A stretch of DNA of 64,000 bases from Nemertoderma westbladi (lineage: Eukaryota; Animalia; Xenacoelomorpha). Location of the stretch: contig JAUCBJ010001223.1 in NCBI GenBank assembly GCA_032718475.1, positions 1 through 64,000 on the forward strand. Reading direction: 5' to 3'. The notes under the pieces were generated by a model. It worked only from the letters and a program-made list of their open reading frames with translations, was not told where the DNA came from and did not search any database. A program made the translations under genes and the position numbers. Shown piece after piece: positions 4,127-52,521 of the stretch (position 1 is the stretch's first letter; every line of letters begins with the position of its first letter).

Positions 4127-4177
4127 AGGTCGTTGGGTTAGACATAAATTTTTATTGAATTTTTATTTTTATTTATG

Positions 4178-4389
4178 AAAAATTAGCTTTGCTTTGTTGC
4201 TTGATTAAGACTAATTGAATTTACATTGATACAGTACTGTGGTAAGGCTGTCAGGTGTAGGCCTAGTATATGTATTTGGAGCAGTTGCCAATGCAGCAAT
4301 TTGCATTACAGCATTAGGAACCATACAGCCATAGTCCTAAATTCTACAATACTGGAATGCCTGAATACACCAGTGACCAGTACACTGGA
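4178..4389. repeat. Left arm of a long foldback palindrome interrupted by element A
   Basis: Reverse complement of ~22465-22603 and ~22710-22770, for example gcaatttgcattacagcattagg vs cctaatgctataatgcaaattgc. Confidence 0.8.
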
Positions 4390-5514
4390 TGTTCGCGCTT
4401 TTAGACCTTTAGCAGTTTAACGTGCCAATTTTAGTTGTCCTCTTGTTTATAAATCGACTTTAGCCTATATCAATTATTTAGTGTACTGAAATTACATCAG
4501 CCGAAGCCAGACTGTGCGCGATCATTCACCCACGGTTTTGGGAGACTGGATTCGGATTCCTTGAGAGTTATTGCAATGTAGACCTACTGTATTATTCGAT
4601 TGATCGTTACTATATAATCTCTGACAAATATATTTACTTTCGGGGAAATATTAGCAGTTCCTTTAGGACGTGGCGCTTTAAGTATAAAAACAGAGTTATG
4701 ACTTATACTAATCACAACTAGATGGCCACAGAGTTTCGTAAATAGCGCATTCTTTAGGAGATGCTTTATTATCTTTCACACTACTTCACACGACTTCACA
4801 CTACTTCACACTACTGCACACTAATCTGCCGACCGTCACTGAATTTGATCATATATAAGGAAGATCGCAACTGACACATGTAGGGATTATGAAATAGCAT
4901 TTAATTCACACAAAAACCACTATAATGTAAGTCGCAGTTGCTACCGGTAAACCTGTTCCTCTTACCTTCAGTAATCAAGAAGATTGGGGGTTTTATGATT
5001 ATTTATCGGTATTCTCCAAATATAACAGCAATATCCATTAATATAACAACAATTAATAACAGACCGTAAACAGAAGTAAAATAATGCGGTGAACAGTCAG
5101 TATGTGTTACTTATGAAAGTCCGGTGAGACGGGTATGATATGTAGGTGGTCAGATAATAGATTTACGTTCTTATAATCAAAGCCATCTGATGTTTAGGCC
5201 AAAGTCTGAAACTTCTACACAGAAGTACAGAAGATTCCGAGCCGGTTCTGGTGCTCAGAAAAATAGTAAACAAAGACCGTAATGCATTGCGCGGGTTTCC
5301 ATAGGCCTCTGTCAGACATAAGGGGGAAAATCACTCTGATTGGCTGACGAGGCAGAACAAAGAAAAGTTCCACGTCCACAAAGAATCAGCTGATAGATGT
5401 CGTCACACCAGCTCCAATTCCTTCCCGTCGCGTAGTTGGATAATTTTAGGGCTATTTTAGAGTATTCTGCGCATTGCGGAAAAATGACTTGTTATGTCCG
5501 CAAAAGCTTTTACA
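4390..5514 (-). repeat. 3' LTR of element A (1125 bp)
   Basis: TGTTCGCG...GCTTTTACA on the + strand. Differs from 21249-22353 by roughly 23 substitutions counted by eye (~98% identity) plus two extra 10-bp CTTCACACTA-type units. Confidence 0.95.
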
Positions 5515-5524
5515 CCGCTCCCAG
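5515..5524 (-). promoter_or_regulatory. Putative polypurine tract of element A
   Basis: Minus strand reads ...ctGGGAGCGG directly abutting the TGT of the 3' LTR. Confidence 0.55.
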
Positions 5525-5592: not shown

Positions 5593-5925
5593 TTAGTCCT
5601 TCTTACGTGAACGGCGTTTACAAAGTTTTTTGAGGCTAGTAAGAGTCCTTTTCTCTTTGGGGCGAGCCACTTTACTAGGAGGGCTATAACTCCTGGGTGA
5701 GGGGTGCAATACAATTGCATCAGAAGGTTTAGGGTTACAGTCGGTGTATCCGCCAGTCGAGGTACCCGGTTGATCGATATCAACCTCAGTGGAACGAGGT
5801 CGAACAACCTTTAGAGCGCGTTTCAGGACAGCAGCTCTTACTGGTCCCTGACGGGTCGTTTGCACGAGAGCGGTAGGTGGACCGTGAGTAGTGAGAAATT
5901 TCCTCGGTTTGATGGTTCTTTCCAA
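5593..5925 (-). CDS. Small basic ORF (110 aa) at the 3' end of element A, unknown function
   Basis: Lys/Arg-rich (KVARPKEKRTLTSLKKLCKRRSRKKD), TTG start, begins 10 nt after the preceding stop. No family recognised. Confidence 0.3.
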   Translation of the reverse strand: MERTIKPRKFLTTHGPPTALVQTTRQGPVRAAVLKRALKVVRPRSTEVDIDQPGTSTGGYTDCNPKPSDAIVLHPSPRSYSPPSKVARPKEKRTLTSLKKLCKRRSRKKD

Positions 5926-5934
5926 CTCGCGTTC

Positions 5935-8900
5935 TCAGGCTCTATATTCATAGGGTCGTCTATGAACTTCCTGTAGTTCTGGATGCGAGTTGATGAACAA
6001 GTCACCATATTCCGGATCTTGACGGATGAAGTTGATCAACTTATAGGAATTAAGGTCGTTAGGATTAATATTCCTAAGATACTTGCGAACAAATTTAGTC
6101 GAAATATTCTCGCCAACACACTTCATTAGCTCGTATCTAGGGGTGCGATATTTTTGCTCGACGGAAGCAAAGAGATACGGGTGAAATGCATAGACTCCTT
6201 CATAGGCACGTCCAGGGTAGTATCGATGAGGTGATTCGCAATGGAGATCCGCGTTAGCTTCCCAGGCGCGAATATAGCGAAGGGCAACCATTTCATCTAC
6301 GCTTTCTAGATCGCGGTTGAAAGGGCAATCGAAACTTGCGTGTCCTTTAAACTGGCAATGATGACATTGAGTCATAAATTGAGGGCAGACTGCGAAGATG
6401 TGTAAGTTATTGAGTCTACAATACGCACAATAGATCTCCATGGTAGGTTGATCTTTAAAGTAGGAGCAGGGTACGCTGGAGTCCAGTGAAGTGGTCTCGT
6501 GATGCGCATAATCGGCAACGTTTCCTAGAAACATAATTGGCATGCCGATAATCGTATGCGGTGAGACATTGTGGACCTTGATACCATTCCAGGACATAGT
6601 CGTTGTCACTGCTCCTGGGCGCTGTGGGTTGAATCTCCTCGGACTCTAAGCAAATTGGTTCATCCTCCAATTGCATAGCTGATGTAGGTCTAGCTGTCTC
6701 CTCAAGCGAACCCACTGTTTGAACTTCCACGATAGAATAACCTATGGGGATTCGGGGTCTTTGTATAACAGAGGAGTGTAAGTTCTGTATACAAACGTCC
6801 TTGAAAATGGCGAATCCAGCGCTGTCTAACTTCTCAGCAGCTGAGTCTCTTAGGCTGAGCTTGGTCAGAGCGCGGACGTTGAACTGACTATCAACGTTAC
6901 GGAACGGAGTCAGAAAGCGCCTAAAGCATTCGAATCGGATGAATTTATTGTGTTCATCTAGCTTGGCGAGCTTGGTTCCAAGTAACAAGGGACGGGCGTG
7001 TATAGTGCGACTGCATACATCGGCTAGCCAACCGTCAAGTGCGGCGTTCTCGAAGATAGTGTATATAGCTAATGAGGGACGAAGTGGAACACTCATGAAG
7101 CTATAAACAACGCCAGGTGCGGTTAATGGTCTGTCGAAGTATAATCGAGAATAATAATCTCCATATACTTGTTGATAGCTGACAGGGTTTCCGACTTTGA
7201 AATTCCATCCGTATTCTTGGAAGGCAAGATGTCTGATAGAGGTTCGTTGTACTTTATTGATGCCGCTGGATGTATTGGCATACATAGTTCGGAAGAAACC
7301 TCGGCCTTCTGCCCAGGGAGCAATCAGCTGAGTGTCTACGAAAGGGTATGGGATATTCTCCATGTTTCTGAAGTCATTTTGGAGATCTCCATAAACAGCT
7401 GAGCCGATTTTATGGATTCTTTCGTTAAACAGCATCTCGAGCACTGGATGGGGTAGCATCGATCCATCTATACCCATGGCCAGTTTGCGCTCGGTATCGG
7501 TAACATAATGCTGCATGAGTTCGAATTGTCCATGTCGGAGTTTCTTTTGGATCTCGGTGAGAGTCTCAAAAGAATAATCGATCACTCTCGAGTAAACACA
7601 TGTGTAGAACCAGCTAGTCCACGTATGTGTATCATTCGCGTAGTTCCCAGTTCTCCAACCGGAACGCTACCTTCGTTATCGTAAGTGACAACTCCATACA
7701 TTTCGATAACGTTAAGAGTTTCGTTCCACTCTTTGGTGGCGTTTTCTATGGTCATACCCACTGGATGCCATAAAGTGGCGCATTCGCTCGCGTTAGGTAG
7801 ATCGCTATACTTCAGATAATGTGTAGTATACGTCTCTACATCTCCATATCGCTGTATTCTCACTTCCTCGAATAATACGTCGAGATTCCAATGGACTAAT
7901 CGAGTTTTAATAAATCCATCAAGATTATACGGCATATATATATATGCATTATATCTTTTTCTATTCTTGAAACATTATACGGTTTTCTGAATGAGTTTAC
8001 TTTGACCAATTGATCTAGATGTTTCTGTAGTTGTTCGAGTTCAACAAGACCTAGGGGGTTTATCAGTGGTAGAAACCTTAAACGGTGTGTAGGATCTTCC
8101 GGTTTCACCATATAATATTGAGTTAGATTGACATAATAGGGGTGGTCTTTGATCCCATAAAATGAGTTCGGTAAAGGTCTAGCGTGTAGGTTGACCTCGT
8201 GTACCATACGATGGACAAGATCCGATCGATTGTCCGGAGGTTCAACGAGTATACCGTCGACACGAGCGGCCTCGATTGGCGGACGTTGTAACATAGGAGC
8301 ATCAGCGATAAGATCTCAAGTTGATATCAACCGGTTGGGGTTGTACCATGGCGAAGAGTTTGTCTCCGAAATGGGGAACCATTGAAGGATGAATAATGGT
8401 TTGGGAATAGAGATCGGTCATAAGGATTTGAGCTTCTGGCTGGGCTAAACTGCTTCTTCTCTCTCGTCCATTTCGATATGCTTCTCCTTGAGCTGATTTT
8501 CCTCCTCTTGTCGTTGGAAGCGTTCGTACAAAAACTCTTGCAGAGAGTAGGTTCGTCCAAGTTCGATGTCTTCCTCGAGATTCTGGATTTCCCGATCGAA
8601 CTGAGGTAAAGCTAATGGACTTGTACTTGTTGCTGCAATTTACATTTATCTAAACAATTGTAGGTTCCTTTTCCGATCTTTTGTCAAATAGCGTCTAGCG
8701 CGTTTCGTACAACGCTCTCCTCCACCTCGGTGACGGGTTGTATCGGGGTTAAACCGGGACGATTATACGGGTTGAACGGCGATATTAGGTGTCCGCATCC
8801 CAATCCGGCTAGGTAAGATGGGCGAATATCTAGGAAGCCCACAACCGGAGTGCCACCGACTAATTGTTCGGGTAACACTAAATCTTTGAACAATGAGTAC

Positions 8901-9805
8901 AGTTCAGGAGGATCCATCATACTATTAGGATCAAGAGTCTGAGGTCTCACGAGGGAATGAGGAGGTCTGACCGAGTATTCCGGAACTCTGATCATCGGTT
9001 TATTTAAGGATCGTTTGAGCCGAGCGAGCGTAGGTGATACGTCAAACAAGTTTTGCTCGAAACTCCCGTAAGTATAGCGAGTAAAACTGTGTTTAGCGCA
9101 ACGTCTCCGCAGATGTTTATGTCTTTCCGTTTGTTGGTTGGGTCTAGGGCATTCATCACGCACGTCTTGTAGGGGAAACGCAGGTGATCTTTCTCCAGTT
9201 TTACAATATTCCTCCATCTGTTCGAAGCTATCCGGTACAACAGGTAGTGGTCGATCGGCGGTAAGATACATCATAGTGAAATAGAGTCGTTTGAGTTCTA
9301 TCATAGGGTTATGATGTATACCTTGAGGATATCGAGTTTCTAGATTTTGTTGACTGGCTATATTGAGATATGTTTCTCTCAAGAATTCCAAATATTTGTT
9401 GAAGTCACTGCATTTATCCGGTTCTTCAACGTCTTCACTTTCGAGTGTTGTCTTCTTTTTCGTGTTCGATTTTCAGTTTATTGTTCCGACTCCGCTGGGT
9501 ATGATATTTAAATAGGACCATTTCCCTTTCTGTTTCTACATCGTCCGTATCGAGTAAATCGATTGGATGACCAGTAGTTAAGAAGTCCATATACGTACCA
9601 TTACGATGCGTATAGCGAGCAGTGAATTTTGTATAGTCCAATTCACGCGTGAGCTGTTCCTTTGACATTGGCGGTTCGATATAACGCCATCGTCCTACGT
9701 AGTGGGTTGACTAGCGTCGCCGCTTATTAAACTATCAACAAACGCTTGCAATGGTAGGGTATATCGCTCCCTGATACCAAAATCATCTTCTATCAACTCA
9801 GTCAT
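5935..9805 (-). pseudogene. Accessory coding region ('ORF3') of element A, frameshifted, C-terminal CCHC zinc knuckles
   Basis: ORFs 9435-9668, 8684-9391, 7896-8294, 7582-7935, 6455-7585 and 5935-6609 abut or overlap on the sense strand; most joins are explained by 1-2 nt slips. Motifs CRLCASRDH, CAYCRLNNLHIFAVC, CHHCQFKGHASFDC. Confidence 0.7.
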
Positions 9806-10624
9806 AGCTGCTATATGAGTTCTTCGATATTGTAATTAATTATAATTTAGGCTAGCGGTCGTCGCTGCCTCCCCCTCAATGCCCCCGGACAGCGCAAGAT
9901 CCTCAGCGCTGATGTACTGTCGTCGCTGTGCCTCTCGCCAACGTAGTAGCTACATAACGACAACAATAACCAGCGCGAGTCACTCCACTGTCCGTCCCAA
10001 GGGCTTAGAATTACTGGAGGTTCTTGCTACAGAGGCAGGGTAACTTTCACAACTGCGACTCGCTACTGTAAACACAGTTTAGTAGTAACATTCACCTATA
10101 AATGCACAAATTCCACACACCTGTCACAAATTGTACACATTCGGGCCATTTGTCTGTTAGTCAAGTGCCTTCCAGAATGCCACGTTATTATTATGTATCC
10201 CTGGATACTAGCAGGGTGCTATTTATTCTGTATGCTATTCAATGGGGCAAGCTTTCTATTGTTCTTTTAACTCGCTTCTAATTCTAGCGTGGTTGTTGCT
10301 ATGGTGACATTATGGAAAGCTAGCAGTAGAATTAGGATAATTCTCATGCATACAGATCTGGGATGCTATTTAATAGTAATTCTTTAATTGTCAATATTCC
10401 CCTTTATACATGATTTTATGAATTTTATCTGCTATTGACTATACATTGGAGATTCTCGCACACTAATATACTTAATAGGGTGAATCTCCGCTCCCATGAT
10501 CTATTAATTAATGGAATTTTGGGAATGTTATAAATTGTATAAAATGACAATTTATCAAATTCATGAGAGGATATGAATTTAAAATTTATTCCCGGGAATT
10601 TTATTATTTGATATTAAAATAGAC

Positions 10625-10975
10625 ACAATTTTATTCCAGAACATGTCTGGGGACTAGGATCCTTAATTCTAGGAAGTTTGTCCTTTTAAGAATATCGGTA
10701 AGTGCTACGATATCTTAATCGACTAGAATTTTAAAGGATCTAAATTTTAACAGATTTTGATTTATAGATTTTCTAGAGTTAACTTGTCAGCATTTACTCT
10801 ATTATAACATTTGTTTTAACAGATTTTATAAATATTTATTAAATATTTAATATTTAAGTAGGGCACCAATTTATTCCAGAACATGTCTGGGGACGTTAAC
10901 CACTGATTCTAGAATTTTGTCTTTCAAGTATATCGGTGGGTGCCGCGATATCTTAATCGACTAGAATTTCAGATG
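10625..10975. repeat. Imperfect direct repeat (~100 bp, 240 bp period) between pol and ORF3
   Basis: ttattccagaacatgtctggggac...gatatcttaatcgactagaattt at 10631 and 10871. Confidence 0.85.
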
Positions 10976-11527
10976 GTCAAAGGGTTTAACAGATTTATTT
11001 TGCGTTTTAACGCTACTGTTAAATGGACATCATTCTACTATATGTATTATTTAATATACGGTATGAGAGCAATATTGCAAGAAGCAATGTCAGTGAGAAG
11101 AGGCAAATCGTTTCCAAGGTCTACCCAGAGCTTGGTTTAGCCGAGACACGAGGATCTGAACTTTGCATTCCTAATACTCTACTTACCAATAATACTTGAG
11201 TATAGTAGGAGCGGTATTGTACTTTTAATAAGTACGGACATTTCATCTTACTGTAGTCACGTATTTATAATATGATACGGACAGTAAGGAAAGAGAAAAT
11301 GAATTATTTCTCGCCGTTAAACGAAATATATAATGCTAAGTAATTAAGTAATAAACACGAATATATATGGCACTAATCTACTGAATAATCGCTAAAATAA
11401 TATTCTACTAAATAAAATTAAAGAAAACGATTATAATAATAAAATTACACAATAATGCATACTATACATAAATATAAAAATAATAAAAATATAAAATAAT
11501 GTAGTCACACACCCACTCCAAACGCTG

Positions 11528-12907
11528 TTACGTTGGGGAGTCCCTAGATGTTTGTTGGATTATGGAGGTGGTCGTGGGAAGAGTATCTTGCCTTCCATAG
11601 TTTCCGGATAGCTCTCTGTCTCTTTCCAGTAAACATAAACGACCAACTGGGTGATTAAGTTGTTGTGTTTCGAATACAACTCCAGGTTTCTTAAAGTTAT
11701 GTCGCATGACGACGAGTTCTACCGATCGCACCAAACCATCATCGGATATATGAGTCTTGATGATACGACCTGTCTGCCACCTCTTACGTGGAAGATCTGA
11801 TTCCACAATAAGGACCATGTCTCCGGCGCTGACGTTTTCTTGCTGCGCAAACCACTTTGTTCGAAGTTGTAGCATAGGAAGATAATGTTTTTCGAAATGG
11901 TCAGCGAAACGACGGGACAACAACTGGATAAGTTGCCAAGTTTGTTGGCAGTATTCGTCTCCGTCCGTGATTTCCGATTGAGGGAGCATGGCTACAGGTT
12001 TCTTTAGTAGGTAATGCGTGGGTGTTAGCGCTTCTAGGGATTCGGGACTCGATGAGACTGGCATAAGCGGTCTCTCGTTAAGATAGGCGACGATTTCTTC
12101 CATTAACGTCCACAAAAGCTCGTCGGTGAGATACAAGCGGCACGGCACTATAAAGTGAAATGCTGTCTTCACGCTCCGTATTAATCGCTCCCAACTTCCT
12201 CCCCACCAAGGGGCGTCGGCGGCGTTGAAGGTCCAGCTAGATGCTGTTATCCTTAGCTGATCGTCCACTTGTCTTTGGTTCCAATCTTTCACGTAAGCTT
12301 TGATCTCATTATTGGCGCCAATGAAGTTCGTTCCTTTGTCGGATCTCATGGTGTTGCTAGTTCCAAAACGAGCGATCTGTCGGCGTAAACTCAGTATGAA
12401 GCTGTTGGTAGATAGATCATTCACCATATCTAGATGGATCGCTCTATAAGTCATACAGACAAAGATGACACACCATCGCTTGACTATAGTCCCCTCACGA
12501 TATACTTCAATAGGGCCAAATAAATCAACACCAGTATTAGTAAAGTGTGGTTCATAGAAGCTTACTCGTTCCCTAGGTAATTCTGCCTCTCGCTGTGTTA
12601 AAGGCCTACTGAATGCTTTCCTACAGGGGATACAGTTCTTAAGAACTTGGTTCAGAGCTCTACGGGGCTTATGGAAATAATAGCGAGTTCGAATTTCGCT
12701 AAGAACTCGTTTTCTACCAGCATGGTAAAGCCTACTGTGAACATCTACAATCATCTTGATTTGTATTTCAAGATTTCTAATGAGTATGGGAAATTTAGTG
12801 TCAAAGGACAATGGAGCATTAGTTAATCTCCCTCCGACACGTATTAACCCATCTATCATTGTGCTAGAGAAACGATCCCTTAAGCGCATCTGTGGATTTC
12901 TCAACAA
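11528..12907 (-). CDS. Bel/Pao integrase (HHCC zinc finger, DDE core, C-terminal domain)
   Basis: GLIRVGGRL, H..LYHAG...CIPCRK, TGVDLFGP, RSDKGTNFIGA, PWWGGSWERLIRSVK, LNERPL, ALTPTHYL, DDGLVRSV. Confidence 0.95.
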   Translation of the reverse strand: MLRNPQMRLRDRFSSTMIDGLIRVGGRLTNAPLSFDTKFPILIRNLEIQIKMIVDVHSRLYHAGRKRVLSEIRTRYYFHKPRRALNQVLKNCIPCRKAFSRPLTQREAELPRERVSFYEPHFTNTGVDLFGPIEVYREGTIVKRWCVIFVCMTYRAIHLDMVNDLSTNSFILSLRRQIARFGTSNTMRSDKGTNFIGANNEIKAYVKDWNQRQVDDQLRITASSWTFNAADAPWWGGSWERLIRSVKTAFHFIVPCRLYLTDELLWTLMEEIVAYLNERPLMPVSSSPESLEALTPTHYLLKKPVAMLPQSEITDGDEYCQQTWQLIQLLSRRFADHFEKHYLPMLQLRTKWFAQQENVSAGDMVLIVESDLPRKRWQTGRIIKTHISDDGLVRSVELVVMRHNFKKPGVVFETQQLNHPVGRLCLLERDRELSGNYGRQDTLPTTTSIIQQTSRDSPT

Positions 12908-12916
12908 CAGGAAATA

Positions 12917-14988
12917 CTAATCGGAATCTTCATAGCATTGCAGGAGTCTCAGTATCTGCTTATTGGTTTCTTCATGCTCTTGGTAACTGATCTTCTCAGT
13001 CAGAAACCTATCCGACACTTTGTAAGTGGGAAGATCTTTAATAGCATGGACCTTTTTGGATATTGTTGGAGCGGTATCACTAGCGATCTTCGTCCTGGAA
13101 TAGTGATGATGGAAACATCTTTTAAGATATACAACGGCCTTACAAAGCCGATTCCAGGAGCTATAATGATTTATTGCTCTCTGCAGGAGAGGTGAGAGTC
13201 CTTGCGAGACATCTGGTGTTCCAGATTTCCAGTCTCTTTCTCTGATTTCTATAACAGATTTGTTTGTGGTGGGGGAGTTTAGATCCACAGCGTCGTCTCC
13301 GGAGGTGTGTAGTACAGACAGATCTATCACGGGTTTAAATAACTTTGATTTACTCGTCCGGGTTTTAGGTTTGACTTTCTCCGCTCCCTTGGCTTGTCTA
13401 ATCTCAGCCGTGGTGAGATGAGGAGGCCATTCATCCTCTTCTTTACTTAGGAAGTCGAGTCCACCTAACCAGTATCTATCAGTTCTTGAGGAGTTGGTCC
13501 TCTGGAGGCGATGTCGGCTGGATTAATCTTCCCAGGGCAATGTCTCCATTGATCTACATTAGAACGACTGAGTATAATGGCTACTCTGTTGGTAACGAAG
13601 ACGCTAAACTGACAGACTTCATTTGTTATATACTCCAGAACGAGTAAAGCATCAGTCCAATAGACAGTTTTCTCCAGTGGATAGTTGATCTGTTCTGTTA
13701 CATTCCGTTACATTCCTGTAGCGTATAGAGCCACTTTTAACTCCGCTCGAGGAACTCGTAGTTTGTTGTTTATTAAGGCCTTAGAGGTGACCAAGGCAAC
13801 TTTAATTCCATCCGGAGTTTCAACCCTCAGGTAGGCTACTATACCTATTCCCATATCGCTGGCATCTCTAAACACATGGAGTTGATAGGAATACGTGGGG
13901 AGAACGTGACCAAAATATGAACGGGAAATCGTAAAGTTCTCGATGGATGGTAGAGAATCTTCCCATTTCATCCACTTCTTTAGTAGTTCTCGATTAAGTG
14001 GATCATCCCACGAGTGGTTTTCGAGCCACATTTGTTGCACTAAGCTCCGAGCAACCAATATAACTGGGCTAATAAATCCCAATGGATCGAAATAAGTGCT
14101 CAGGATACTTAGACAAATCCGTTTGGTTCTAACTGGATTATCTCGCTGTTTTAACTGGAAAAACAAGATATCTCTCTCCGTGTCCCATTTTAAACCTAGC
14201 GTCTTGGTTTCCGGAAGATCGTCCTTGATGAGGTCCAGATCTTTAACACCTCAGTCTTCTACCGGTATCGATTCCAGAAACTCGCGGGAGTTACTAGTGA
14301 ATTTGGTTAGCCGAAATCCACCGCGTTGCAAGCACTCTACCATTCCCTTGGCAACATCAATGGCTTCTTCCACCAATGGGAGGGACTTTAAATTGTCGTC
14401 CATGTATATATCCCGTTTGATGTTGTCAATAACAGCTTTAGAGAAGGCGTCTCGGTTGTCATCAGCAGTGGTACGCACTACCGAACAAGCGTTCGAGGGG
14501 CTTGAGATGATCCCGAAAGCTTGGATGGTCATCCAGTACTCCACCAGTTTTCGATTGAGGTCTCCTTCAGGCCACCACAGATATCGTAGGCTGTCTCGAT
14601 CCCTATCCAGCGCCTTGACTTGTAAGAACATGCCTTCTATGTCCGAAGTGAATGCGATAGATTATTGCCTCAGTCTTAATGATATTTCCAACAAGGATTG
14701 GAGTAAGTTGGGTCCCGGCAACAGTTCTGAGTTCAGGGATTGACCCATGTAAAGGATGGAGCCGTCAAACACTACCCGGACTTCGTTGGGTTTACCAGGC
14801 TTGGGAACGTAATGATGTGTTAGATAATACGTTCTCTCCGTTACGGGTGTTTCTTCCGGAACTCGCTCCGCGTATCCTTTATCAATAAATGTCTTCAACT
14901 GGGTTTTATACATTTCCCTGGCTTGAACGTTGGCCGTAAGACGCCGATGTAGTTGCGCGATTCTCTTTTCTGCTAAAGGTCGGTTATT
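12917..14988 (-). pseudogene. Bel/Pao reverse transcriptase and RNase H, broken by frameshifts and stops
   Basis: YYLTHH, KPNEVRVVFDGS, SLNSELLPGPNLL, LRYLWW, YMDD, GGFRLTKF, FDPLGFISP, LHVFRDAS, RVPRAEL, YSSWNRL. Confidence 0.92.
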
Positions 14989-15508
14989 TATAAAGTTGGG
15001 TTCTCATAGCGACCTTCGTCCTTCAGATAACGAGTTGTTGTTTCCTGAATCTGCTTGGCTCTCTCTTCCTCGACTGACAAGGCTTTGTCGTAGGAATTAG
15101 GCTTTACGGCTTCTTGAGTAAAGAATTGTACGGCGTATTCATCATGGATTTTGTTATTGTATCGATCTATCACATCTATTTCGTCGTTATATGTGAATTG
15201 TCCACCATGTTGATTGATAAGATGGCACAAGTTTACTTGGTTTAACCAGGTTTGCTTTTCGGTGAGGAGGTCGATTGTATTTTCCTCATCGTATAATTGA
15301 TTGATGTTGTCGTTGTCTGAGGAGTATGGAATTTCCTCAGTGGTGGTGTCTCCCTCACTGATTTCTTCTTCCCATTCACTCACCTGATGTATTCTGTCAT
15401 TAGGGAGTCTTTCCATTAGGGTTCTACGGGAAGGTCCAGTGAAGTACCAACCTACTCTCGTTCTTACCGCGTACGTTTGCAATGGTTGCGGTCGAGCAGG
15501 CCGTTTTT

Positions 15509-15922
15509 CTAACGTCTCAAGCGCCTCGTGCCATTTTGGCCGATTAATATCTGCACCCCTGGGAAATCGGTGTTAAATCTAGGTATATCATGTTGCTGGA
15601 TAAAATGGTCTTCATCCCAGTTGTAAGGTTCCACTTGGCTAGTAGCAAAGTTCTTTATAGCCACCATTTTTACCGACCTTACACTATATTCTCCTAGTTC
15701 ATCCTGGGGAGTGGACAATGCACCCACGTAGTAATCTGTGGCTACTGTGGATTTCCAAACCTGCATAATTCCTGAAAGGTTCAACTTAGTTCGGAACTTA
15801 GGTTGTCCAGCAAAGATGTCTTCGGCTAGTTCTTTGTCAATGAATGTACCTGTGCTGACGGAGTCAAGGAGGGCATTTACTATGAGGCTCTTCCCTAGCC
15901 CATGTACTCTCAGTTGCACCAC
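15509..15922 (-). pseudogene. Bel/Pao aspartic protease region
   Basis: VNALLDSVSTGTFI catalytic motif and VQILIG motif. Confidence 0.85.
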
Positions 15923-18900
15923 AGGGAATTCTCGGATCCCGACGGAGGAAGTTGGCGCTTTCCAAGATGGTTGTCGGTCCGAGGATCTTCATAGTCGGTT
16001 TCAGTCTCATACGTAAGTGCTCGATACACAGCGGTGTTTATCATAAAACAGGATTCATTTTCATCGGAGAATTCGTCCGTGTAGAATCCTTCCATCTCAG
16101 AACTGTGGTCAGTGTCGTTCATATCACTGAATTGGACATGTAGCTCGGGCTCACTTACCTGACTCGTGCGGGTTCTATCAAATTCGGTGTGCAGCAAAAT
16201 ATGATGTTTCGCGCCGCACTTAGCACACCTCGCATCTGAGTAACAGGTCCGCCGTTGGTGTCCTCGTCTGAGGCAATTATAACACAACCGCTTCTCCCAC
16301 ATGACATAACGTCTATCCTTAAGGGATTTCTTCAAGAATTCATCACACCCACTCAAACGAGGCCCGTCGCACAATGCACATTTCGGTTTGATTTTACTTA
16401 CTTTAACCTGTGTTGTGTTGTGCACACTTGTTCTTTCCTCGGGCTTTCTTCCATGAATTCTCTTAGGAGACGTAGGAGGAGTAGTTGTTACCTGTTCTCT
16501 CCTGTCACTGGTTCGAGACTTAGATTTACTTACGTCTTTCCTCAGTTTGTTGACATAATAAGATATTTCGGTGTCCTTACCGCTATTTTCCTCATATGAG
16601 GTTTGACTTTTGCCATCGTCTGTATAACACACTGGTGTTAACTTTCTCCTAGAAACGGATTTTTCACTCACCTTACTTTCCGGTGTCTTCTCTCTGGACT
16701 GTTTGAGGAGCTGTAATCTTACCTCTCCATTTAAGAATGACATGAGATCAGCCATGGTAGGATCTCTTTGTTGCTGGTCCATCATATAGAGAACCCTTTT
16801 GTCCCAATGAGTACCTACTCCACCCTTTGGCAAAGTAGATGCTACGGCTCCAACAACCATAGAACTCTGGTATTCCTGAGACTTACCTAACCAATCTAGC
16901 TGTCTACAGATCTCCTGAATCTCATCGGAAAACTCTATAATCCCGCTGCTAAGAAACCTTCGGGGCGCTACTAATTTCGCATATAAATACCTAGCTATGT
17001 TAGTCCTATTACCATACCTGGCCATACGAAGCCGACACCGAAGCCCATACGGGCTTCGGTTCTAGCCATTTGACGTGTAAAACTTTCTTGAGCCATCGTA
17101 TTATTTAATATCGAGTTATCAGAATATAAATTTCTCGGATTATGATCAGATCGGTATGGGATATCATTATCAACGGGTTTATAATTACCCTTAATAGGGT
17201 TTACTATAGGAGTTTCTACTTCACTAGCAGTATAGATGCATGTAGGCTCCACACCTTGCGCATGAAATACTTCAGACCTAACAGGTTGACACATTGTTAC
17301 AGGGGGTGGTGGTATACCCATTTGTATATTTACTAATTTATCGCGCTCTAAAGCGATACTTTGTTGCACTTCTTGCAACTCTAACCTACTCTCTCTCACT
17401 GTTCCCTTTAACTGCTGAACAGTCCCTTCCAATTCGCGGACCTGCTGTGAAGACCTTCGTTTATGGTCTTCCAGCTGCCCGAGCAGGCGAGTCATCCCCC
17501 GCCGTCCCTCGTCTACCCACTCAACTGCTGAAGCGGGAGCCGCCAACATAGTAGCGGGATGACGCGTAGGGACGACGGGAGACAAGTCATTTATGTCTTG
17601 CTCAGCGTCCAGGACTGGATGTTGTTCCAGGGCTTGTCTACTGGACACAGGTAGTTTAGTACTGTGCAAAGGGAATTTAGAGTTAGGTTCTGGTAGTACA
17701 GGAGTTTCTATCCCAGGAGTGGCTTCAATGACAGGCCTAATTATTTCGGGCTCGTCTACTATAGTAGGGAGTCTGTCTACTCTAATAATTTGGTCTGTAG
17801 GCTCAGGATTACTTAAGTCTACATTAGCTAGTTGCCTTCTCACCGCAGGAGGTAAATTAGGTAACTTCTGACGGTGTGGTGTTCTTCTACGTCCGCTTGA
17901 ACGAGATTTACTACCTCTTCCCTCGGGATCCGTTGTATCACCTTCATCAGAGGAGGTAAATCCCTGTCTTCTGGGAGTAGATCGACTCAGTAGTTTTATC
18001 TGAGTAGCTGCTCTGTGTTTATTTAAGTAATCTTGCTTCACCTGCAGATTCTCCAATTCTAGTTGGGTTGTCGCTTCAGATGCGCGTCGTTCTGCTTCAG
18101 CCACTGCCGCTGCTGCTGTTGCCTTTCTTTCGGCTTCCGCTGCTGACGCTGCTTCCTTTCTTTCAGATTCTGCCGCTTTTCTTTCGGCTTCCGCCGCTAC
18201 CGCTGCCGCTGCTGCTGCTGCTTCCTTTCTTTCAGATTCTGCCGCTTTTCTTTCGGCTTCCGCCGCTGCCGCTGCTTCCTTTCTTTCAGATTCTGCCGCT
18301 GCTGCCAACTTTCGGTCTTCTATTCGCCTTTTCTTTATTTGTTCTTCTTGGTCCATTGCGATGCTTTCATCCAATTTAGCCTGTTCTGCAGCTAATATTT
18401 CCGCATCTAACGAGTCCAACACAAATTTGGCTCCCTCACTATTAGGGTGAAGTCCAGCTAGCCGTCTCCTTAGCTCTTTATCACCTATGAATCGTTGATA
18501 GTCCGACCGATAGATGTCAATAGCATCCTTCTTCCGAGGTTTTTCGGATGTAGCTTCGCCTTCCACCTGAGAAAAGGTAGTGTCTGTTGATTCTCCGTGG
18601 GTCATGCACTCAGTTAGCTGAACTTTCCATTGTGTCGTTCCCTGGACTTTAAGACTCACACGTTGGAACCAAGTCTTTACGGCCACTTGCAACGACGTGT
18701 CTTGGCTTCTCTTTGAGGCTTCCTCAAAGGCTGAAAGGATTAGTCTGATCCGTAAAATTCGTTCTCGCACTTGATAAAGCAGCTCTCCCTGCTCTTGAGG
18801 TCCTTGACGTTGTTGAAATAGGTGTTCTTCTAATCGCTCCAAAGAGCTGCAGAATCCCTGAACATATCCGGCTGCTGACCTCTTCCATACAGCTGGATCG

Positions 18901-19481
18901 CGAGTGTCCCTTACTATTCCCATCCTGTATAAGTCCTCCCAGGCAGCTTCCAATAAGTTAAACGGGAGTCCGGGTCCGGGGAAGTTCCATTGCGTCTCGA
19001 CAATAGACCTCAGTTCCTCCATTGTGTATCCCGCATAATTGTCCCTGGTCGCTCACTTATTTCTCGCCCAATCGATTTGATGTTCCTCCACCGCGATCAA
19101 TACTCTTGTGAGTACGGCTCCAGGAAGAATTAGAAGTGGATCTGGATAAACCGCTTCTGCCATCCTTGCTCCGATCTCGGGCGTCAACTCTTCAGTGTCT
19201 GAACTACTAGAGTTATCGTGCCGTTGAGAAATAAGCTCTCGGTTCGGGTGCTGCTGCTGTTTAACAGCTGGCTCTTAGTCCCGCTTAACTTGAGCCCTAG
19301 TGCCTATAATAGACCTATGGTGCTTTACTAGCCTAGGGTCTGATACCACTACTGTAGGGATGACCTTTCTTACAGTAGGAGGGGACTTGGACTTCGTTCT
19401 CATATGTTCTATACTCTTATCTGAGTCACAGACTGTTCTTTCTAGGAGACTATCTGACAGTGTTTGCTTTGTGTCAGCCAT
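15910..19481 (-). pseudogene. Bel/Pao gag of element A (frameshifted)
   Basis: ORFs 19275-19481, 16995-19022 and 15910-17025. Triple Bel/Pao knuckle CALC...C, CYNCLRRGHQRRTC, CAKCGAKHHILLH; coiled-coil Ala/Glu repeat. Confidence 0.88.
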
Positions 19482-21237
19482 GATTGATTTTACAGTTGAA
19501 TGCCTACTACTATAATGACAGTTAAAGTAAGTTTAGGAATTCAGTATTAACTGTAAGCCTAGTAATTAATTACCGATACCGTTACTCAGTGTAACGTGAT
19601 ATATATATTATTAAAATACCGGTATACACTTATAGTATATATAAGTATTATTTACAGACTAGGTTCAGTCACAGAGTACCGGTATATAATTTCAGCCTAA
19701 ATTTATATAAATAAATATGATAAGCCTACCGTAAATACCGGTAATGTCAATTATTTAACAATAACTGAATTTCTGAATTTTAGGGTTACTTCCCTTTACT
19801 TTATTACTGATATTAAGCAGTATTTCAACTGATATTAAGACCTATTGGATGTATAACAGGCCTACTATTTTATAAATCTGTTGAGTTGATTTATAAATAT
19901 ATATATATATACCCGTACAATGGGTTTTCACAATATTTGAAATAAATGTTATTATTTCTGGATAAGGAGTCACTACACAGAAGCTGAATGCTTTCAGTGG
20001 AGTGCTACTTGTTGGACACTAATACAGATAATTCTACTTTACTAAGTTACTTATCACTACAAATTACTTACAATTACAGTTTGAGATTACAATCTCTAAA
20101 TAAACAATAACAAGTTACACGTACAATTTGTTAGGGTAATTTTACAAGAAATCTACAAACCAGCCTAACAAGGAGTTATAATTTCTGGTTCTTACAAACT
20201 GACAGGAAACTACGGTATTTGAAAACAATAAAGCAGTAGTAAGTAAGTTGTGTTGTCCAGATAAGGAAATACCACTGTCTGACGACTTATAGTCTTAGCT
20301 CTATAAGTACTACGTTATGTACCCGGAGTGTCCTTACCTAGAGGTTAATTACCGAAGCCAACCAGAGCTAACGTGCCTATTAACCACGTTACAACACAAA
20401 TATACTGCCTATACACTAAATTACTTTCGGAAAGCACTGTACTCTAAACCCTAAATTAGGTACAAGTACTTATACAACAAATAACCAGCAGTTAAATATA
20501 CTTGAACAGCCAAAAGAACCACGGTATCTGCTGGAGTGACCGGAGCACAAAATCACCAGTCTTTACCTACGCCAAGCAGCCCGGGGTTAATTTAACTATA
20601 ACGGTATGTATAACAAGCACAATTACTGTAGGAATAAATTTGGGGAATTGGAGGTTGCGAATACTCGCATAGACTCTGGATAATAAATATTACGCTACCC
20701 GTGCAGACTATTCAAATAAAACACAGACCAAATGCTGGCAGACTACTGTCAAGCCTAAATAAACTACAGTATATGCAGACTCCGAAATGGTTAGTTAGTA
20801 GGCATTCTAACCGAGTAGTACGACTTATTCTTTCGGGGGGGGGGGGGATTTAACTTACAACACTGGATGCCCCCACCTTCCTAACTAGAACTTTATAGGA
20901 CAGACACTCTACACATACTGCAATTGCCTCAGACCTAACAAGAGCTAGACAATAATCCGGCCTACAAATTATTTATACAATCTGAGCAGGCTTATACGCC
21001 TTCTGCTCAATATTACACTTACAGATAAATATAACTGACAGAAATAAGTAAAATCTCAATAAAAACCAGGGCTGCAGTCCCCGATTAAATATTAAGACCT
21101 ACCAGTATATAATTATCACAATCGAAATAATACTGGGTACCTGTAAGTACCGGTTCGGGTGTTTGGGCAGTTAGGCCTACAGCTTACCGTCCGACCGACA
21201 TTCGACTTTATTGCCGACGGCGCAATAAAGAAACTTA

Positions 21238-21248
21238 AAATCTATTAT
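21238..21248 (-). promoter_or_regulatory. Non-tRNA primer-binding site of element A (ATAATAGATTT), complementary to its own LTR
   Basis: Abuts the 5' LTR with no spacer and no TGG; pairs with minus-strand AAATCTATTAT at 22003-21993. Confidence 0.65.
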
Positions 21249-22353
21249 TGTTCGCGCTTTTAGACCTTTAGCAGTTTAACCTGCCAATTTTAGTTGTCCT
21301 CTTGTTTATAAATCGACTTTAGCCTATATCAATTATTTAGTGTACTGAAGTTACATCAGCCGAAGCCAGTCTGTGCGCGATCATTCACTCACGGTTTTGG
21401 GAGACTGGATTCGGATTCCTTGAGAGTTATTGCAATGTAGACCTACTGTATTATTCGATTGATCGTTACTATATAATCTCTGACAAACATATTTACTTTC
21501 GGGGAAATATTAGCAGTTCCTTTAGGACATGGCGCTTTAAGTATAAAAACTGAGATATGACTTATACTAATCACAACTAGATGGCCACAGAGTTTCGTAA
21601 ATAGCGCATTCTTTAGGAGATGCTTTATTATCTTTCACACTACTTCACACTACTGCACACTAATCTGCCGACCGTCACTGAATTTGATCATATATAAGGA
21701 AGATCGCAACTGACACATGTAGGGATTATGAAATAGCTTTTAATTCATACAAAAACCACTATAATGTAAGTCGCAGTTGCTACCGGTAAACCTGTTACTC
21801 TTACCTTCAGTAATCAAGAAGATTGGTGGTTTTATGATTATTTATTGGTATTCTCCAAATATAACAGCAATATCCATTAATATAACAAAAATTAATAACA
21901 GACCGTAAACAGAAGTAAAATAATGCGGTGAACAGTCAGTATGTGTTACTTATGAAAGTCCAGTGAGACGGGTATGATATGTAGGTGGTCGGATAATAGA
22001 TTTACGTTCTTATAATCAAAGCCACCTGATGTTTAGGCCAAAGTCTGAAACTTCTACACAGAAGTACAGAAGATTCCGAGCCGGTTCTGGTGCTCAGAAA
22101 AATAGTAAACAAAGACCGTAATGCATTGCGCGGGTTTCCATAGGCCTCTGTCAGACATAAGGGGGAAAATTGCTCTGATTGGCTGACGAGGCAGAACAAA
22201 GAAAACTTCCACGTCCATAAAGAATCAGCTGATAGATGTCTTCACACCAGCTCCAATTCCTTCCCGTCGCGTAGTTGGATAATTTTAGGGCTATTTTAGA
22301 GTATTCTGCGCATTGCAGAAAAATGACTTGTTATGTCCGCAAAAGCTTTTACA
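21249..22353 (-). repeat. 5' LTR of element A (1105 bp)
   Basis: Direct repeat of 4390-5514, followed by TSD CTGGA. Confidence 0.95.
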
Positions 22354-22850
22354 CTGGAAGGTAGGTTGTAGTTGGATTGGAAAATCCTGTTTGTACGGTA
22401 CACATGGTAGGCCTACCGTAGCGGAAGATCCATCAGGAATATTCCGATCCAACTACAACCTACGTTCCAGTGTACTGGTCACTGGTGTATTCAGGTATTC
22501 CAGTATTGTAGAATTTAGGCCTACGGCTGTATGGTACCTAATGCTATAATGCAAATTGCTGCATTGGCTTTAACTGCTCCAAATACTAGGCCTACACCTG
22601 ACATAAATTAAATAAAAGATTTATTAAAGTCTCAAACACAGTTGCGAAATTAATTACCTCGTTCAGTTACATCATTTGAACATAAATTTAGGAAAAAGGA
22701 CTGCAGTAACAGTACTGTATCAATATAAATTCAATTAGACTTAATTAAGCAACATAGCAAAGCTAATTTTTCCTAAATTTATGTTCAAATGATGTAACTG
22801 AACGAGATAATTTATTTCGCAACTGTGTTTGAGGCTTAAATAAATCTTTT
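22354..22850. repeat. Centre and right arm of the foldback palindrome, plus a nested second inverted repeat
   Basis: gtaggttgtagttggattggaa vs ttccgatccaactacaacctac flank a short loop; ~22614-22696 is inverted against ~22768-22850. Confidence 0.8.
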
Positions 22851-25589: not shown

Positions 25590-27900
25590 TAGTTCGGAAA
25601 TGTTTCGACAAGTTGTCAGGTTGATGAAGAAATATCATAGAAACCTTGTCCAACGGGAAATAAAAAAAGCGAAATCTGAATATTTGTACAACAAAATAAG
25701 TGAGAATAAAGATAATCCAAAAAGTCTATGGTCTACCCTAAAATCTTTAGGTTATAAAAACCTTAAATCTAAATCGAATATTGTTCTGCAAGATAACGGT
25801 GAGCTGATTCATGATCATACTCTAGTTAGTAATTTATTTAATAATTATTTTACTAATGTTGCCTCTAATTTAGTTAAGAGGTTACCGTTATCAAGTAATA
25901 AATATTGTATAGGGTCCGAAACTCTAAATAATTTTTATTTAGAAAAGTTACAAAATTCAGAAAGTTATTTTTAAAACCCGTTTCTGAGGATTTCGTTTTT
26001 AAAAATCTACTTAGCCTATCAGCCTCAAAAAGTACCGGTCTAGATCTAATACCTGCCCGTTTTCTTAAGGATGGTGCTGAAGTACTTAAAGTGCCTATTA
26101 CTTTTATTATTAATTACTCTATCGTAGATAATGTAGAACCAGACGAACTGAAATTAGCTAAGGTTGTTCCTCTGTATAAAAAGAATAGTAAAGTAGAACC
26201 CTGTAATTACAGACCTGTTAGTATCTTAAGTATTGTATCTAAAATTCTAGAACGTTCTGTTTTTCTACAGCTGGAGGCACATCTTAGTAGGCTAAATCTG
26301 ATCTATGAACTTCAGTCCGGTTTTCGTAAATCATATTCTACAGACACCTGCCTTAATAACTTAACTGATACAATTAGATGTAATAACGCAAAGGGTTTAT
26401 ATACTGGTATGGTAATGTTGGACCTACAAAAGGCTTTCGATACTGTAGATCACGAAATTCTGCTTGGTAAGTTAGGCCTGATGGGTGTAGGTTCTATAGA
26501 CTGGTTCAAGTCCTACCTGTCAGACAGAGGTCAAAGTGTAGTCATTAGCAAATCGCTGTCTACTGTACAAGAGATTACCTGTGGTGTACCGCAAGGTAGT
26601 ATATTAGGTCCTCTGCTTTTTGTATGCTATGTAAATGATATGATAAGTAGTATAGATCCCGATTTTAAACTCATTTTATATGCCGACGACAGTGCTCTTA
26701 TTTTCTCTCATAAAGATCCTATCCATATTTCCCAAAAGTTAAGTGCAGTTCTAGAATCCTGTAATGAGTGGTTGGTTGATAATAAGCTATCCATTCACTA
26801 CGGTAAAACTGAAAGTATTTTGTTTGGTTCCAAAAGAAAGTTAAAGAAGGTAACTAAGTTTGAAGTCACTAGTAATGGACATAAGATTGAAAATAAAAAG
26901 GAAGTTAAATATTTAGGCGCCACATTGGATAACTGCTTATCAGGAGAAAGTACAGTGAAAAATATTTTCTCGAAAGTTAACAGTAGGCTTAGGTTTCTAT
27001 ACAGAAATAAAAATAGTTTAAACACCGACTCCCGCAAGTTACTTTGCTCTTCTTTAATACAGTGTCACATGGACTATGCGTGCTCTTCTTGGTATGAAGG
27101 CTTAACCAAACAGCTTAAATGTAAATTACAAGTAGCTCAGAATAAAGTAGTACGATTTATTAAAGACTACAAACCTAGGCACCACCTAACTCCAGATGAC
27201 TTTTCTGAATCTGGACTACTTAACTTAGATAGTAGAGTTAAGCAGCTACGCCTTAACCATGTGCATAAAGTGTATAATGGTAAATGTCCCAATTACCTAA
27301 AACAAAAATTCAACAGAGTACGCGATACACACTCTTACAGTACCAGAGCTAGTGCTTCAAACTTCTACCTCCCGAATTGTAAATCCTTTGAATCTGATAC
27401 TTTCTTTTTTAACGGCATAAAAAATTGGAACGCTCTGCCTAATGAAATTAATGTTATGAAATTAAAAACCTAAATAATCAACATTCTTTTAAATCTGCAG
27501 TTAAATCTCATCTCCGTGTGCAATGTAAAAATAGGTACAATAGTCCTACAGTAAGTTATTAGTTTATTAATTATTTACTATTTATACTGTACTTACGTTT
27601 TATAATAAATTGTTCTGTACATTACATCTTTACCGTTGAGTCGGGCATTGTCACGCTCTCGGTAAAGTTGTACATGTACATAGTGTAATTACGTTTTATA
27701 TTGGTTTTAGGTTAGCGTAGTGTAATATTGTATTTGTAACCAAGTAACATAAAGGACCCCCTTGGAAATAAGCTGCAAAGCTTTAGGGGTAATCCTATAT
27801 GTTATGTTGGACAATACCTTTACCTTTATACCGGTACATTGTTTGGTGTATTTGTTATTGTTTTTACATAATGTATAAATAAATCTATCTATCTATCTAT
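25590..27900 (+). mobile_element. 5'-truncated CR1/L2-group LINE (ORF2 RT and 3' UTR)
   Basis: ORFs 25558-25974 and 26091-27473 with [48 protein letters not shown]. Ends AATAAA followed by (TATC)n. Confidence 0.93.
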
Positions 27901-28823: not shown

Positions 28824-29940
28824 TCATATTATGGGTGTCCCTTGCCTGATGCATTTCTCATCAAAATGGTAGCGTTGAGAAGTCGAAAGTACCAGGGATG
28901 TGTAGCAACATCTGGTGGTGATTGTCACTACATATTGCACAGCACGATTGTTTTTACATGCCCGCATGTAATGTCCAGTGCCTAGGCACTTGAAACATTC
29001 TTGGTGCTTCATTACAGTTTCGAAGCGGGGCACCAACTCCGCGTATTTGAACTTTTGGCAGAATTCGACTGAGTGATTGTCTCCACAGAATATGCAAGTA
29101 GGGACTCGTGGATTCCCTCTCATTTGGGCGCCCAATCGGCGAAGAAGGGTGCCCATTCTTCAGGCATCTCTGATTCATCCTCGTCCTCCTCATGATCTTC
29201 GGATCCGTAGATGGCCATGGTACTACTGGGCTCATGGAACCTGGGTTTGAGGGTGGGAATTCATGCAGTAGTCTGCCCCCCATCCAACTTTGCTAGACTT
29301 TGTTTAGAGAATATAGAGTCGTTCATGGCCTCGGAAACGTCGTCGAGGAATCTCAACATCTCGAGATAACTCAGATCGCTATCCAGATGACGTCTATGTA
29401 AATCAAAACATCTGTATGCCAATTTGGTCTGCAACCATGCGTTTTACTTGGTCCTCTTTCTTCAGAGGTTTTAGGCCGTAATATGCCTCCTTCATGGAGT
29501 CCGGACAATTGCGACCCGGACAATTGCGACCCGGACAATTGCGACCAGGACAATTGCGACCCGGTCAATTGCGACCCATGTTTTTAAATAAAAATTTTGG
29601 GTCGCAATTGTCCGGATCACAATTGTCCGGGTCGCAATTGTCAATGATATACAATGATACAATGATATTTATCAATGATATACATTACATTTTTTTATCT
29701 GGATCCGGACAATTGCGACCCGGACAATTGCGACCCGGACAATTGCGACCCGGACAATTGCGACCCGGACAATTGCAACCCGGACAATTGTCCAGGTCGC
29801 AATTGTCCTAACATCCTCCTTCATTGAGTTAGAGAACTCCAGGATGTTTTGAGAATCACCCAGCAAACCTGCATCATGGACCAGTCTTTCAAGAGTTTTA
29901 TTAACCTCCTCCTTTTTATTAATCTCTCTTATTAACGGAT
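28824..29940 (-). pseudogene. Old Bel/Pao gag fragment
   Basis: CIFCGDNHSVEFCQKF...CFKCLGTGHYMRAC knuckles. Interrupted by the MITE at 29496; right boundary approximate. Confidence 0.75.
29496..29816. mobile_element. MITE built from 15-bp GGACAATTGCGACCC repeats in both orientations (Mutator-like)
   Basis: GGA...TCC ends, TSD TCCTTCAT (29488-29495 and 29817-29824, extendable to 9-10 bp). Confidence 0.75.
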
Positions 29941-41904: not shown

Positions 41905-43215
41905 TTACTGTGGGGCGAGCCACGAAGTTGGCGGAGCCTTAGCGAATTGACACTGTTAGGGGGTGGGTCAATTTATGCAAATAGTTGTCGTCGTCGTCGT
42001 TGTCGTCGTCGTCGTCGTTGTCGTCGTCGTCGTCGTCGTTACGATTTTGACATGCTAATAACTTTGTCGGATTTAAAGCTGCCAAGTTGAAAATTTGTAG
42101 GTATCAATATGAGCAAAAGTTGAGATTTTTGAGAGACTTTCAGACACCATCAGTGCAATGGTCTCCCGCTAGAGGGCCACATGTCTAAACATTAAATGCC
42201 CTCCCATTTCTTTGCTTTTAATCCGTTTAAGCTGAAACTTGGCAGATATGTATTAGACCATTAGCTGTGACTTTCAAAGGAGGCGAATCCATCTGCAGTT
42301 CTCCAGTCTGCCGCTAGAGGGCCAAAGGTCTGAAAGTGAAATCGTTGTCGTCGTTACGATTTTGACATGCTAATAACTTTGTCGGATTTAAAGCTGCCAA
42401 GTTGAAAATTTGTAGGTATCAATATGAGCAAAAGTTGAGATTTTGAGAGACTTTCAGACACCATCAGTGCAATGGTCTCCCGCTAGAGGGCCACATGTCT
42501 AAACATTAAATGCCCTCCCATTTCTTTGCTTTTAATCCGTTTAAGCTGAAACTTGGCAGATATGTATTAGACCATTAGCTGTGACTTTCAAAGGAGGCGA
42601 ATCCATCTGCAGTTCTCCAGTCTGCCGCTAGAGGGCCAAATGTCTGAAAGTGAAATCGTTGTCGTCGTTATGATATTGACATGCTTATAACTTTGTCGAA
42701 TTTAAAGCTGCCAAGTTGAAAATTTGTTTTGTTGAAAATCAGTTCAACAGTCACCCGCTATAGGACTACTTTATGCCTGAAAGTGAATAGATTCTCCCGT
42801 CTCATTGATTTTAATCAGTTTAAGCTGAATCTTGCCATATATTCTGGACCACATGCTGCGTCTTTGTGGGGGGGGGGGGGGGGGGGGGAGAGATTTAATC
42901 GGTCTGCCGCTATACGACGAAATTTCTGAAAGTGAGATCCGTCTCTCATTTCGTTATCCGTTATTCAAGATGAAACTTGGCCGATGTACGTATGTACTAT
43001 TCATCCATAGGCTGTGTCTTTGTGGGGCTGGAGACCCTAATCCATCTTCAGTTCTCACTATACCGCTAGAGTCAGAAATGTCTGAATAGAAATGAAAGAG
43101 GTAAAAAGTGATTAGGCGAAATCTGCTTAAAATTTGCTAATACAGTAATACTTTCGAATTAGTACTTAAATTAAATTTAAGTCACGTGCTGCGCGAAGGC
43201 CCCACTTCGTGTAGG
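41905..43215 (+). mobile_element. Helentron-associated (HINE/DINE-like) element with (GTC)n and ~315-bp internal tandem repeats
   Basis: gtggggc/cacgaagt at the left are mirrored by gccccac/acttcgtg at the right; (GTC)n at 41986-42040; units start at 42041, 42356 and 42670. Confidence 0.6.
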
Positions 43216-51819: not shown

Positions 51820-51832
51820 TGTATTTTATGGT

Positions 51833-52245: not shown

Positions 52246-52257
52246 TTTTAGATCATG

Positions 52258-52508: not shown

Positions 52509-52521
52509 ACAAGAAGAAAAT

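Follow-up and report, generated by a model that had tools for sequence, protein, structure and literature searches.

The window analysed here is a stretch of 64,000 nucleotides of DNA from Nemertoderma westbladi. It contains a decayed BEL/Pao retrotransposon, element A, which lies on the minus strand (22353-4390) and has a total length of 18 kb. The two LTRs of the element align with 1082 identities, 23 mismatches and one 20-nt gap. Its parts are:

21249..22353, minus strand: 5' LTR, TG...CA, 1105 nt (from the LTR-LTR alignment)
4390..5514, minus strand: 3' LTR, TG...CA, 1125 nt (from the LTR-LTR alignment)
22354..22358, minus strand: target-site duplication TCCAG (5 bp), upstream copy
4385..4389, minus strand: target-site duplication TCCAG (5 bp), downstream copy
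15910..19052, minus strand: gag-like reading frames, fragmented, with weak DUF1759 and zinc-knuckle matches
11528..15988, minus strand: pol, fragmented, with protease region, RT, RNase H and integrase
5593..9710, minus strand: extra reading frames between the integrase and the 3' LTR, of no known family (Pfam)
5515..5522, minus strand: PPT-like purine-rich tract adjoining the 3' LTR

Gag is followed by the order PR-RT-RH-IN with Pao-type domains: the RNase H is Pfam Peptidase_A17 (E 1e-32), the integrase has Integrase_H2C2 and DUF5641 (Pfam), and homologues carry the same domain set. By its LTR ends, target duplication and domain order, element A is a member of BEL/Pao. Judging from the fragmentation of both gag and pol, this copy is unable to move by itself; the pol frame 15003-13465 has four stops.

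The leader between the PBS and the first gag-like frame (19480-21248, minus strand) is unusually long, approximately 1.8 kb, and AT-rich. The stretch that follows the integrase (9710-11528) is non-coding, has a lower GC content and contains a 155-nt internal repeat (10605-10757 and 10844-10996); it is possibly a nested insertion. Among the extra frames, 5938-6645 has a weak zinc-knuckle match, and 6458-7666 gave weak atlas matches to viral RdRP clusters (0.75-0.76), which are a lead only. For the latter frame no homologues were found among 1.84 billion representatives, and single-sequence folding gave no usable structure (pLDDT 32). The insertion site of element A is a small repeat, palindromic and MITE-like, the halves of which face each other at 4171-4389 and 22359-22850.

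The window also contains a second BEL/Pao element, element B (56180-64000, minus strand). Its pol extends to 58864, and it further has a 102-nt tandem array and, near 56720, a PPT. CCAAT and TATA motifs occur in the 3' LTR of element B; neither its 5' end nor its PBS is within the window. LINE-type RT frames are found at 25932-27473 (plus strand), 47728-51825 (minus strand) and 54371-55132 (minus strand), one of them with an endonuclease domain, and tandem arrays at 29470-29826 (15 nt), 42027-42758, 46121-46837 and 52224-52553 (22 nt, palindromic).

The PBS of element A and its complement in the LTR

A previous reading, made from the sequence alone, placed a PBS directly at the 5' LTR, without spacer or TGG, and an exact 11-nt complement of it in both LTRs. 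These features were found again, and the coordinates given for element A, PBS and LTR complement all held on recheck:

21238..21248, minus strand: primer-binding site without TGG, adjoining the LTR (offset 0), ATAATAGATTT
21993..22003, minus strand: contiguous 11-nt PBS complement in the 5' LTR, predicted end of a self-primer, with the predicted cut after 21993
5154..5164, minus strand: identical 11-mer in the 3' LTR

In each of the two LTRs the exact complement of ATAATAGATTT begins at position 351. The match comprises exactly 11 nt from offset 0 and does not extend in either direction or across the LTR end, and no further copies of the 11-mer were found within the window. When the LTR was shuffled with its dinucleotides preserved, a match at offset 0 was obtained in 38 of 20,000 shuffles and a match at offsets 0-3 in 115 of 20,000, and of the 7,110 window 11-mers as AT-rich as the PBS, eight had a complement in the LTR. 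With 11 bp at offset 0, element A falls within the working definition of a self-primer given in a plant survey, i.e. complementarity of at least 10 bp starting 0-5 nt after the LTR (PMC6317226). The 18-nt PBS for a tRNA 3' end, as in BEL/Pao, is absent from element A, and no TGG follows the LTR. No tRNA genes were found in the window, and there were no Rfam matches at 19400-22500 at E up to 1.

Complementarity in related elements

Relatives were collected in a scan of metagenome contigs with an integrase alignment (30 rows). Of the 499 loci confirmed, the 80 best were used, and in 52 of these the sequence upstream of the integrase match is 4 kb or longer. Fifteen relatives were scored, in which the end of the 5' LTR could be set and there was LTR sequence to search; loci in which the LTR end or the junction was unreadable on the contig were left unscored. 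The LTR ends were set by divergence of the terminal repeat in 11 of the 15, and by eye, after the pattern had been seen, in four (L030, L041, L070 and L071). Of the viral-contig scans, one gave no loci and another a single locus without a 5' end.

Most of the 15 scored relatives lack TGG. Under strict splice rules, a split complement of 10-15 nt was present in the own LTR of 10 of the 15, the number of independent families being slightly lower than that of rows, with L039, L030 and L044 as close kin. A contiguous 11-nt complement was found in two relatives (L053 and L068), and three (L005, L048 and L051) have a TGG-type PBS and no own-LTR complement. When only the 11 independently set LTR ends are considered, all eight non-TGG elements have a complement. 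In the controls with the PBS exchanged between elements, a split match of at least 10 nt occurred in 1/238 cases and a contiguous match of 11 nt in 0/238, and with windows from the element's own leader the corresponding values were 0/336 and 1/336. Under a relaxed rule that allows any GT...AG, the controls reach 10 nt in 10/238 and 8/272 cases. The letters of the PBS are family-specific, for example GTAAAAACTCT in L072, GTCAACAACG in L070 and GTTTGAAGCTTT in L055, and as each of these matches its own LTR, the match covaries between families, which the sequence-only reading had named as a check.

In a blind scan covering 48 loci, a split complement of 13 nt in L040 was gained, as was L044 (of the L039 family). 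Inspection by eye showed a split match in L036 (11 nt). The background of the blind scan was high due to unrelated 13-17-nt inverted repeats in L023, L072 and L073, and its contiguous matches in L006, L045 and L061 (11 nt) were hence accepted by eye only and stand outside the 15-locus count. The comparison supports PBS-LTR complementarity as a trait of a lineage, wider than the element A copy.

The predicted intron in the LTR

In the split sites the first half consists of 4-9 nt ending at a donor and the second half of 5-7 nt after a pyrimidine tract and YAG, located 71-426 nt downstream of the first in the 10 split relatives. The donor motif is GTAAG in nine of the ten and GTACG in L072, the latter motif having been added after the pattern was seen. 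These canonical signals indirectly support the GT...AG segment in the LTRs of the split relatives as a predicted intron, as do L068 and the pair L036 and L045. In L068 an acceptor AG stands directly before the second half in the 5' LTR and the 3' LTR has an uninterrupted site, in a contig that is possibly chimeric, the two LTRs being 88 % alike. L036 (split) and L045 (contiguous) are sisters (SH-aLRT 99) and have the second half in common.

The site of element A is contiguous, similarly to those of the L068 3' LTR, L053, L061, L045 and L006, and under strict splice rules no split complement was found in its own LTR. A donor-like motif lies nearby:

21799..21804, minus strand: donor-like GTAAGA downstream of the site, with no matching intron shown

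The TGG-type L051 (814-1212) has a donor and an acceptor in the LTR region and no match to its own PBS, and self-priming may therefore have arisen later than the LTR introns. In several families the predicted primer end is directly followed by hypervariable sequence or short tandem repeats (L077:2080-2135, L045:133-180 and window 21931-21992).

Transcript start, hairpin and predicted folding

Eight of the 15 relatives have a TATA motif upstream of the donor or site, at a distance of 36-171 nt, and in seven none was found. In 12 of the 15 a poly(A) signal is located 6-89 nt after the site. With TATA motifs at such distances, the primer site is likely to be usually internal to the transcript and the primer a longer capped fragment. 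In L080 (6625-6661) the TATA is only 36 nt before the donor, and if this promoter is in use, the first exon would be 5-7 nt. Upstream of the site in the element A LTR no TATAWA was found. The sequence-only reading had noted, as a caveat, a TATAAG close to the site; it is present and starts 11 nt before it. The motifs near the site and the PBS are:

22009..22014, minus strand: TATAAG, not a canonical TATAWA and too close to place the start at 22003
22178..22182, minus strand: CCAAT motif, a possible promoter element in the LTR's upstream part
21206..21230, minus strand: 9-bp hairpin with a 7-nt loop, after the PBS; its first arm has the PBS as an additional predicted pairing partner

The hairpin had also been part of the sequence-only reading. 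It is present, and such stems occur in 14 of 1,066 60-nt tiles of the window; the stability of the local fold is not out of the ordinary (z 0.09). As a part of a shared mechanism it was rejected, as no stem longer than 6 bp was found at the equivalent place in any of 20 relatives; on this comparison the hairpin is family-specific. Since its first arm is a predicted pairing partner of the PBS, the hairpin may be a switch that frees the PBS.

Folding was predicted for 11 relatives with three starts each. In 10 of them the duplex between site and PBS reached p of at least 0.7 with one or more of the starts, and in L070 and L045 it was predicted only if the RNA starts at the site. No duplex was weaker than that of element A (-8.0 kcal/mol, compared to -9.5 to -17.1 in the relatives), and the distance from the site to the PBS and LTR end is 744 nt, compared to 60-222 nt in the relatives. 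Its predicted p was at most 0.02 at 37 °C, i.e. it is not predicted to form unaided, and none of the candidate introns downstream of the site restored it in folding (0/3, then 0/39). For an RNA that starts at 22003, the cost of forcing the duplex was 2.9 kcal/mol (1.4 at 20 °C), compared to 15-19 kcal/mol for an RNA that starts at 22100. The folding is thus slightly more in favour of the 22003 start than of a start located 100 nt upstream.

Copies of the element A family

Many related copies of element A were found in Logan contigs (four runs from at most three samples). At least 10 of the 15 contig joints listed rejoin the element A LTR at 21991-21995, and the stretches before the rejoining differ (38-126 nt). 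The family contigs resemble element A upstream and through the site and diverge directly after it. Joints at 21991-21995 are what would be expected if the first cDNA ends there. Position 8 of the PBS is variant in 26-37 % of the family contig depth, which was not taken as copy number, and position 1 is variable too. The letters past position 11 vary equally or more, with 21236 variant in 23-40 % of the depth, variation at 21237 and indels at 21235. One subfamily has kept only the first four letters of the PBS, and the hairpin stem is kept in family contigs while its loop letters are changed. The family contigs are too short for a PBS variant to be paired with its own LTR.

Position of element A among related elements

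The position of element A was assessed with quick trees, which had no reference elements of Sinbad, Suzu, Pao, BEL, Tas, Dan or Flow. In the integrase tree (74 rows) a single clade of 51 rows (SH-aLRT 96) takes in each of the 18 self-complementary rows and none of the eight TGG-type rows. By their names, some of its members are proteins of a crab, a copepod, a barnacle, a hemichordate and two fishes, placed by integrase only. Element A itself is outside this clade, on a long branch beside element B, with a warning from the tool. In the RT-RNase H tree (31 rows) it is in an open fork with self-complementary families and the TGG-type L004, and when L051, L062, L058, L008 and L025 were left out it was on the self-complementary side with a support of 94. 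The identity of element A is 37-42 % to self-complementary rows and 31-34 % to TGG-type rows, except for L004 (39 %). A position next to the self-complementary families is likely and moderately supported, but not firm.

Element A and the lineage have a signature in common: a duplex of 10-15 nt at offset 0-4, with the end AC or AT, mostly followed by C or G. In element A the duplex is 11 nt at offset 0 and ends AT, as in L013 (AC in the rest), followed by C.

Discussion

It is highly probable that the family of element A primes itself in some form. We also consider it probable that a wide BEL/Pao lineage of aquatic animals has dropped tRNA priming, that the host spliceosome writes the primer, and that repeated loss of the intron has given ready-made primers such as that of element A, which would be a third independent self-priming route among LTR elements. 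For element A itself we lean towards self-priming via an internal, intron-less site, as a member of a lineage with a predicted splice-built primer.

In such a mechanism the start of the transcript would be within the 5' LTR, either at the site or upstream of it, and the LTR intron, where present, would be spliced so that the two complement halves are joined. The site would fold back onto the PBS and, by analogy with Tf1, the RT/RNase H of the element would cut just 3' of the duplex, leaving a 3' OH paired at the LTR edge, with the end AC, or AT in element A and L013. The RT could then copy U5 back to the cut, and the cDNA would be transferred to the 3' LTR, before the poly(A) site. Rather than an 11-mer, the primer would in most cases be a capped fragment with a length between tens of nt and about 150 nt, the last 10-15 nt of which are paired, and in split families only spliced 5' ends would be able to start reverse transcription. 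The intron would persist if the copy in the 3' LTR escapes splicing and would be lost otherwise, resulting in contiguous sites like that of element A.

The weak fold and the 744-nt span of the element A duplex are the main evidence against an internal site, and they keep alive the geometry of the sequence-only reading, a strict Tf1 arrangement in which the transcript starts at 22003, and its first 11 nt are the primer; the element A site would then never have depended on an intron. The Tf1 self-primer is about 11 nt, and the match in element A is exactly 11 nt at offset 0. The lower cost of forcing the duplex with the start at 22003 (2.9 compared to 15-19 kcal/mol for 22100), the duplexes of L070 and L045, predicted only with a start at the site, and the TATA of L080, 36 nt before the donor, also agree with it. 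However, there is no TATAWA upstream in element A, where the TATAAG at -11 would imply a start beyond the site, TATA motifs lie 49-171 nt upstream in seven relatives, and the split sites would require first exons of 4-9 nt. This geometry is in our opinion unlikely. The self-priming proposed in the sequence-only reading is itself supported, as PBS and own-LTR complement covary across families, but the start at 22003 is not established. The long span and the poor predicted fold-back in element A would also be understandable if the complement primed in trans or from the other end, either as a separate short LTR transcript (from a solo or 3' LTR, spliced in the relatives) or on a second packaged RNA, and this would also account for the persistence of the intron in progeny LTRs. 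We find this improbable, since cis fold-back is well predicted in the relatives, in which the span is only 60-222 nt, and since Tf1, Tf2 and Tj1 are described as cis-priming (PMC5341516, PMC4600332).

Priming of element A by a host RNA, e.g. a tRNA fragment, would make the LTR match a product of chance or a leftover. The complement of the element A PBS, when read further, may resemble a tRNA anticodon arm; the motif is AT-rich, and it is not certain that element A belongs in the self-complementary clade. Among copia lineages there are cases of priming by half-tRNAs, according to the plant survey (PMC6317226). Against this stand the low chance of the match (approximately 0.002-0.006), the strong variation within the family of the letters just past the 11-mer, and the many different PBSs of the relatives, each of which matches its own LTR, and we give this explanation little credence. 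Self-priming via an internal site remains the reading that we prefer for element A.

If the proposed mechanism is true, a large part of BEL/Pao primes itself and splicing gates replication in most families, which would be a link between RNA processing and the initiation of reverse transcription for which we found no earlier description. It would also provide a simple rule for annotating the PBS in BEL/Pao, i.e. to look across the LTR intron; to our knowledge, there are many BEL/Pao PBSs that no tool can assign. The exact positions of splicing and cutting can be predicted from the mechanism, which is also relevant to the question of an ancestral or a repeated origin of self-priming, and self-primed elements would presumably escape control by PBS-targeting tRNA fragments.

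In the ICTV profile, BEL/Pao elements (Belpaoviridae) are primed by host tRNA, with an 18-nt PBS for tRNA-Arg or tRNA-Gly (PMC8742986), in agreement with the general description from which the sequence-only reading had set out. Element A is similar to the profile in its TG...CA LTRs within the 0.2-1.2 kb range, the order gag-PR-RT-RH-IN, Peptidase_A17, DUF5641 and the PPT. It differs in its length of 18 kb, compared to genomes of 4.2-10 kb, in the 1.8-kb leader and approximately 4 kb of extra frames, and in the lack of a TGG-type PBS (PMC8742986). No description of self-priming or of a splice-built primer in BEL/Pao was found in the literature searched, with subscription journals, Repbase reports, GyDB and supplements outside its scope. 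The main texts of PMC3118150 and PMC554778 do not mention primer binding, PBS, tRNA or priming, and BEL/Pao is not modelled in the accessible part of PMC3601003.

With Tf1, Tf2, Tj1 and the Tf1/Sushi group, element A shares an LTR-adjoining PBS that is complementary to its own LTR, with no tRNA; in these elements the RT is described as cutting the primer free (PMC5341516, PMC4600332). In the Tf1-type elements the primer, as described there, is the 5' segment of the mRNA, whereas in the lineage of element A the site is likely internal and mostly split by a predicted intron. The site-to-PBS distance of 744 nt in element A is also unlike that of Tf1-type elements. Tf1/Sushi belongs to Ty3/gypsy (Metaviridae), whereas element A is BEL/Pao by its domains and did not qualify as a chromovirus. 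The plant survey, in its accessible part, names self-priming for Tf1/Sushi, Tcn1 and TAR only (PMC6317226). For the TAR lineage (Houba as well as Osr-1, both Ty1/copia) and the plant Tcn1 chromoviruses, self-priming was predicted there from PBS-LTR complementarity of at least 10 bp. The matches in TAR and Tcn1 are contiguous, no intron-split primer is reported for them in that part of the survey, and they belong to other superfamilies and hosts (PMC6317226); they provide a precedent for separate origins of self-priming outside Tf1/Sushi.
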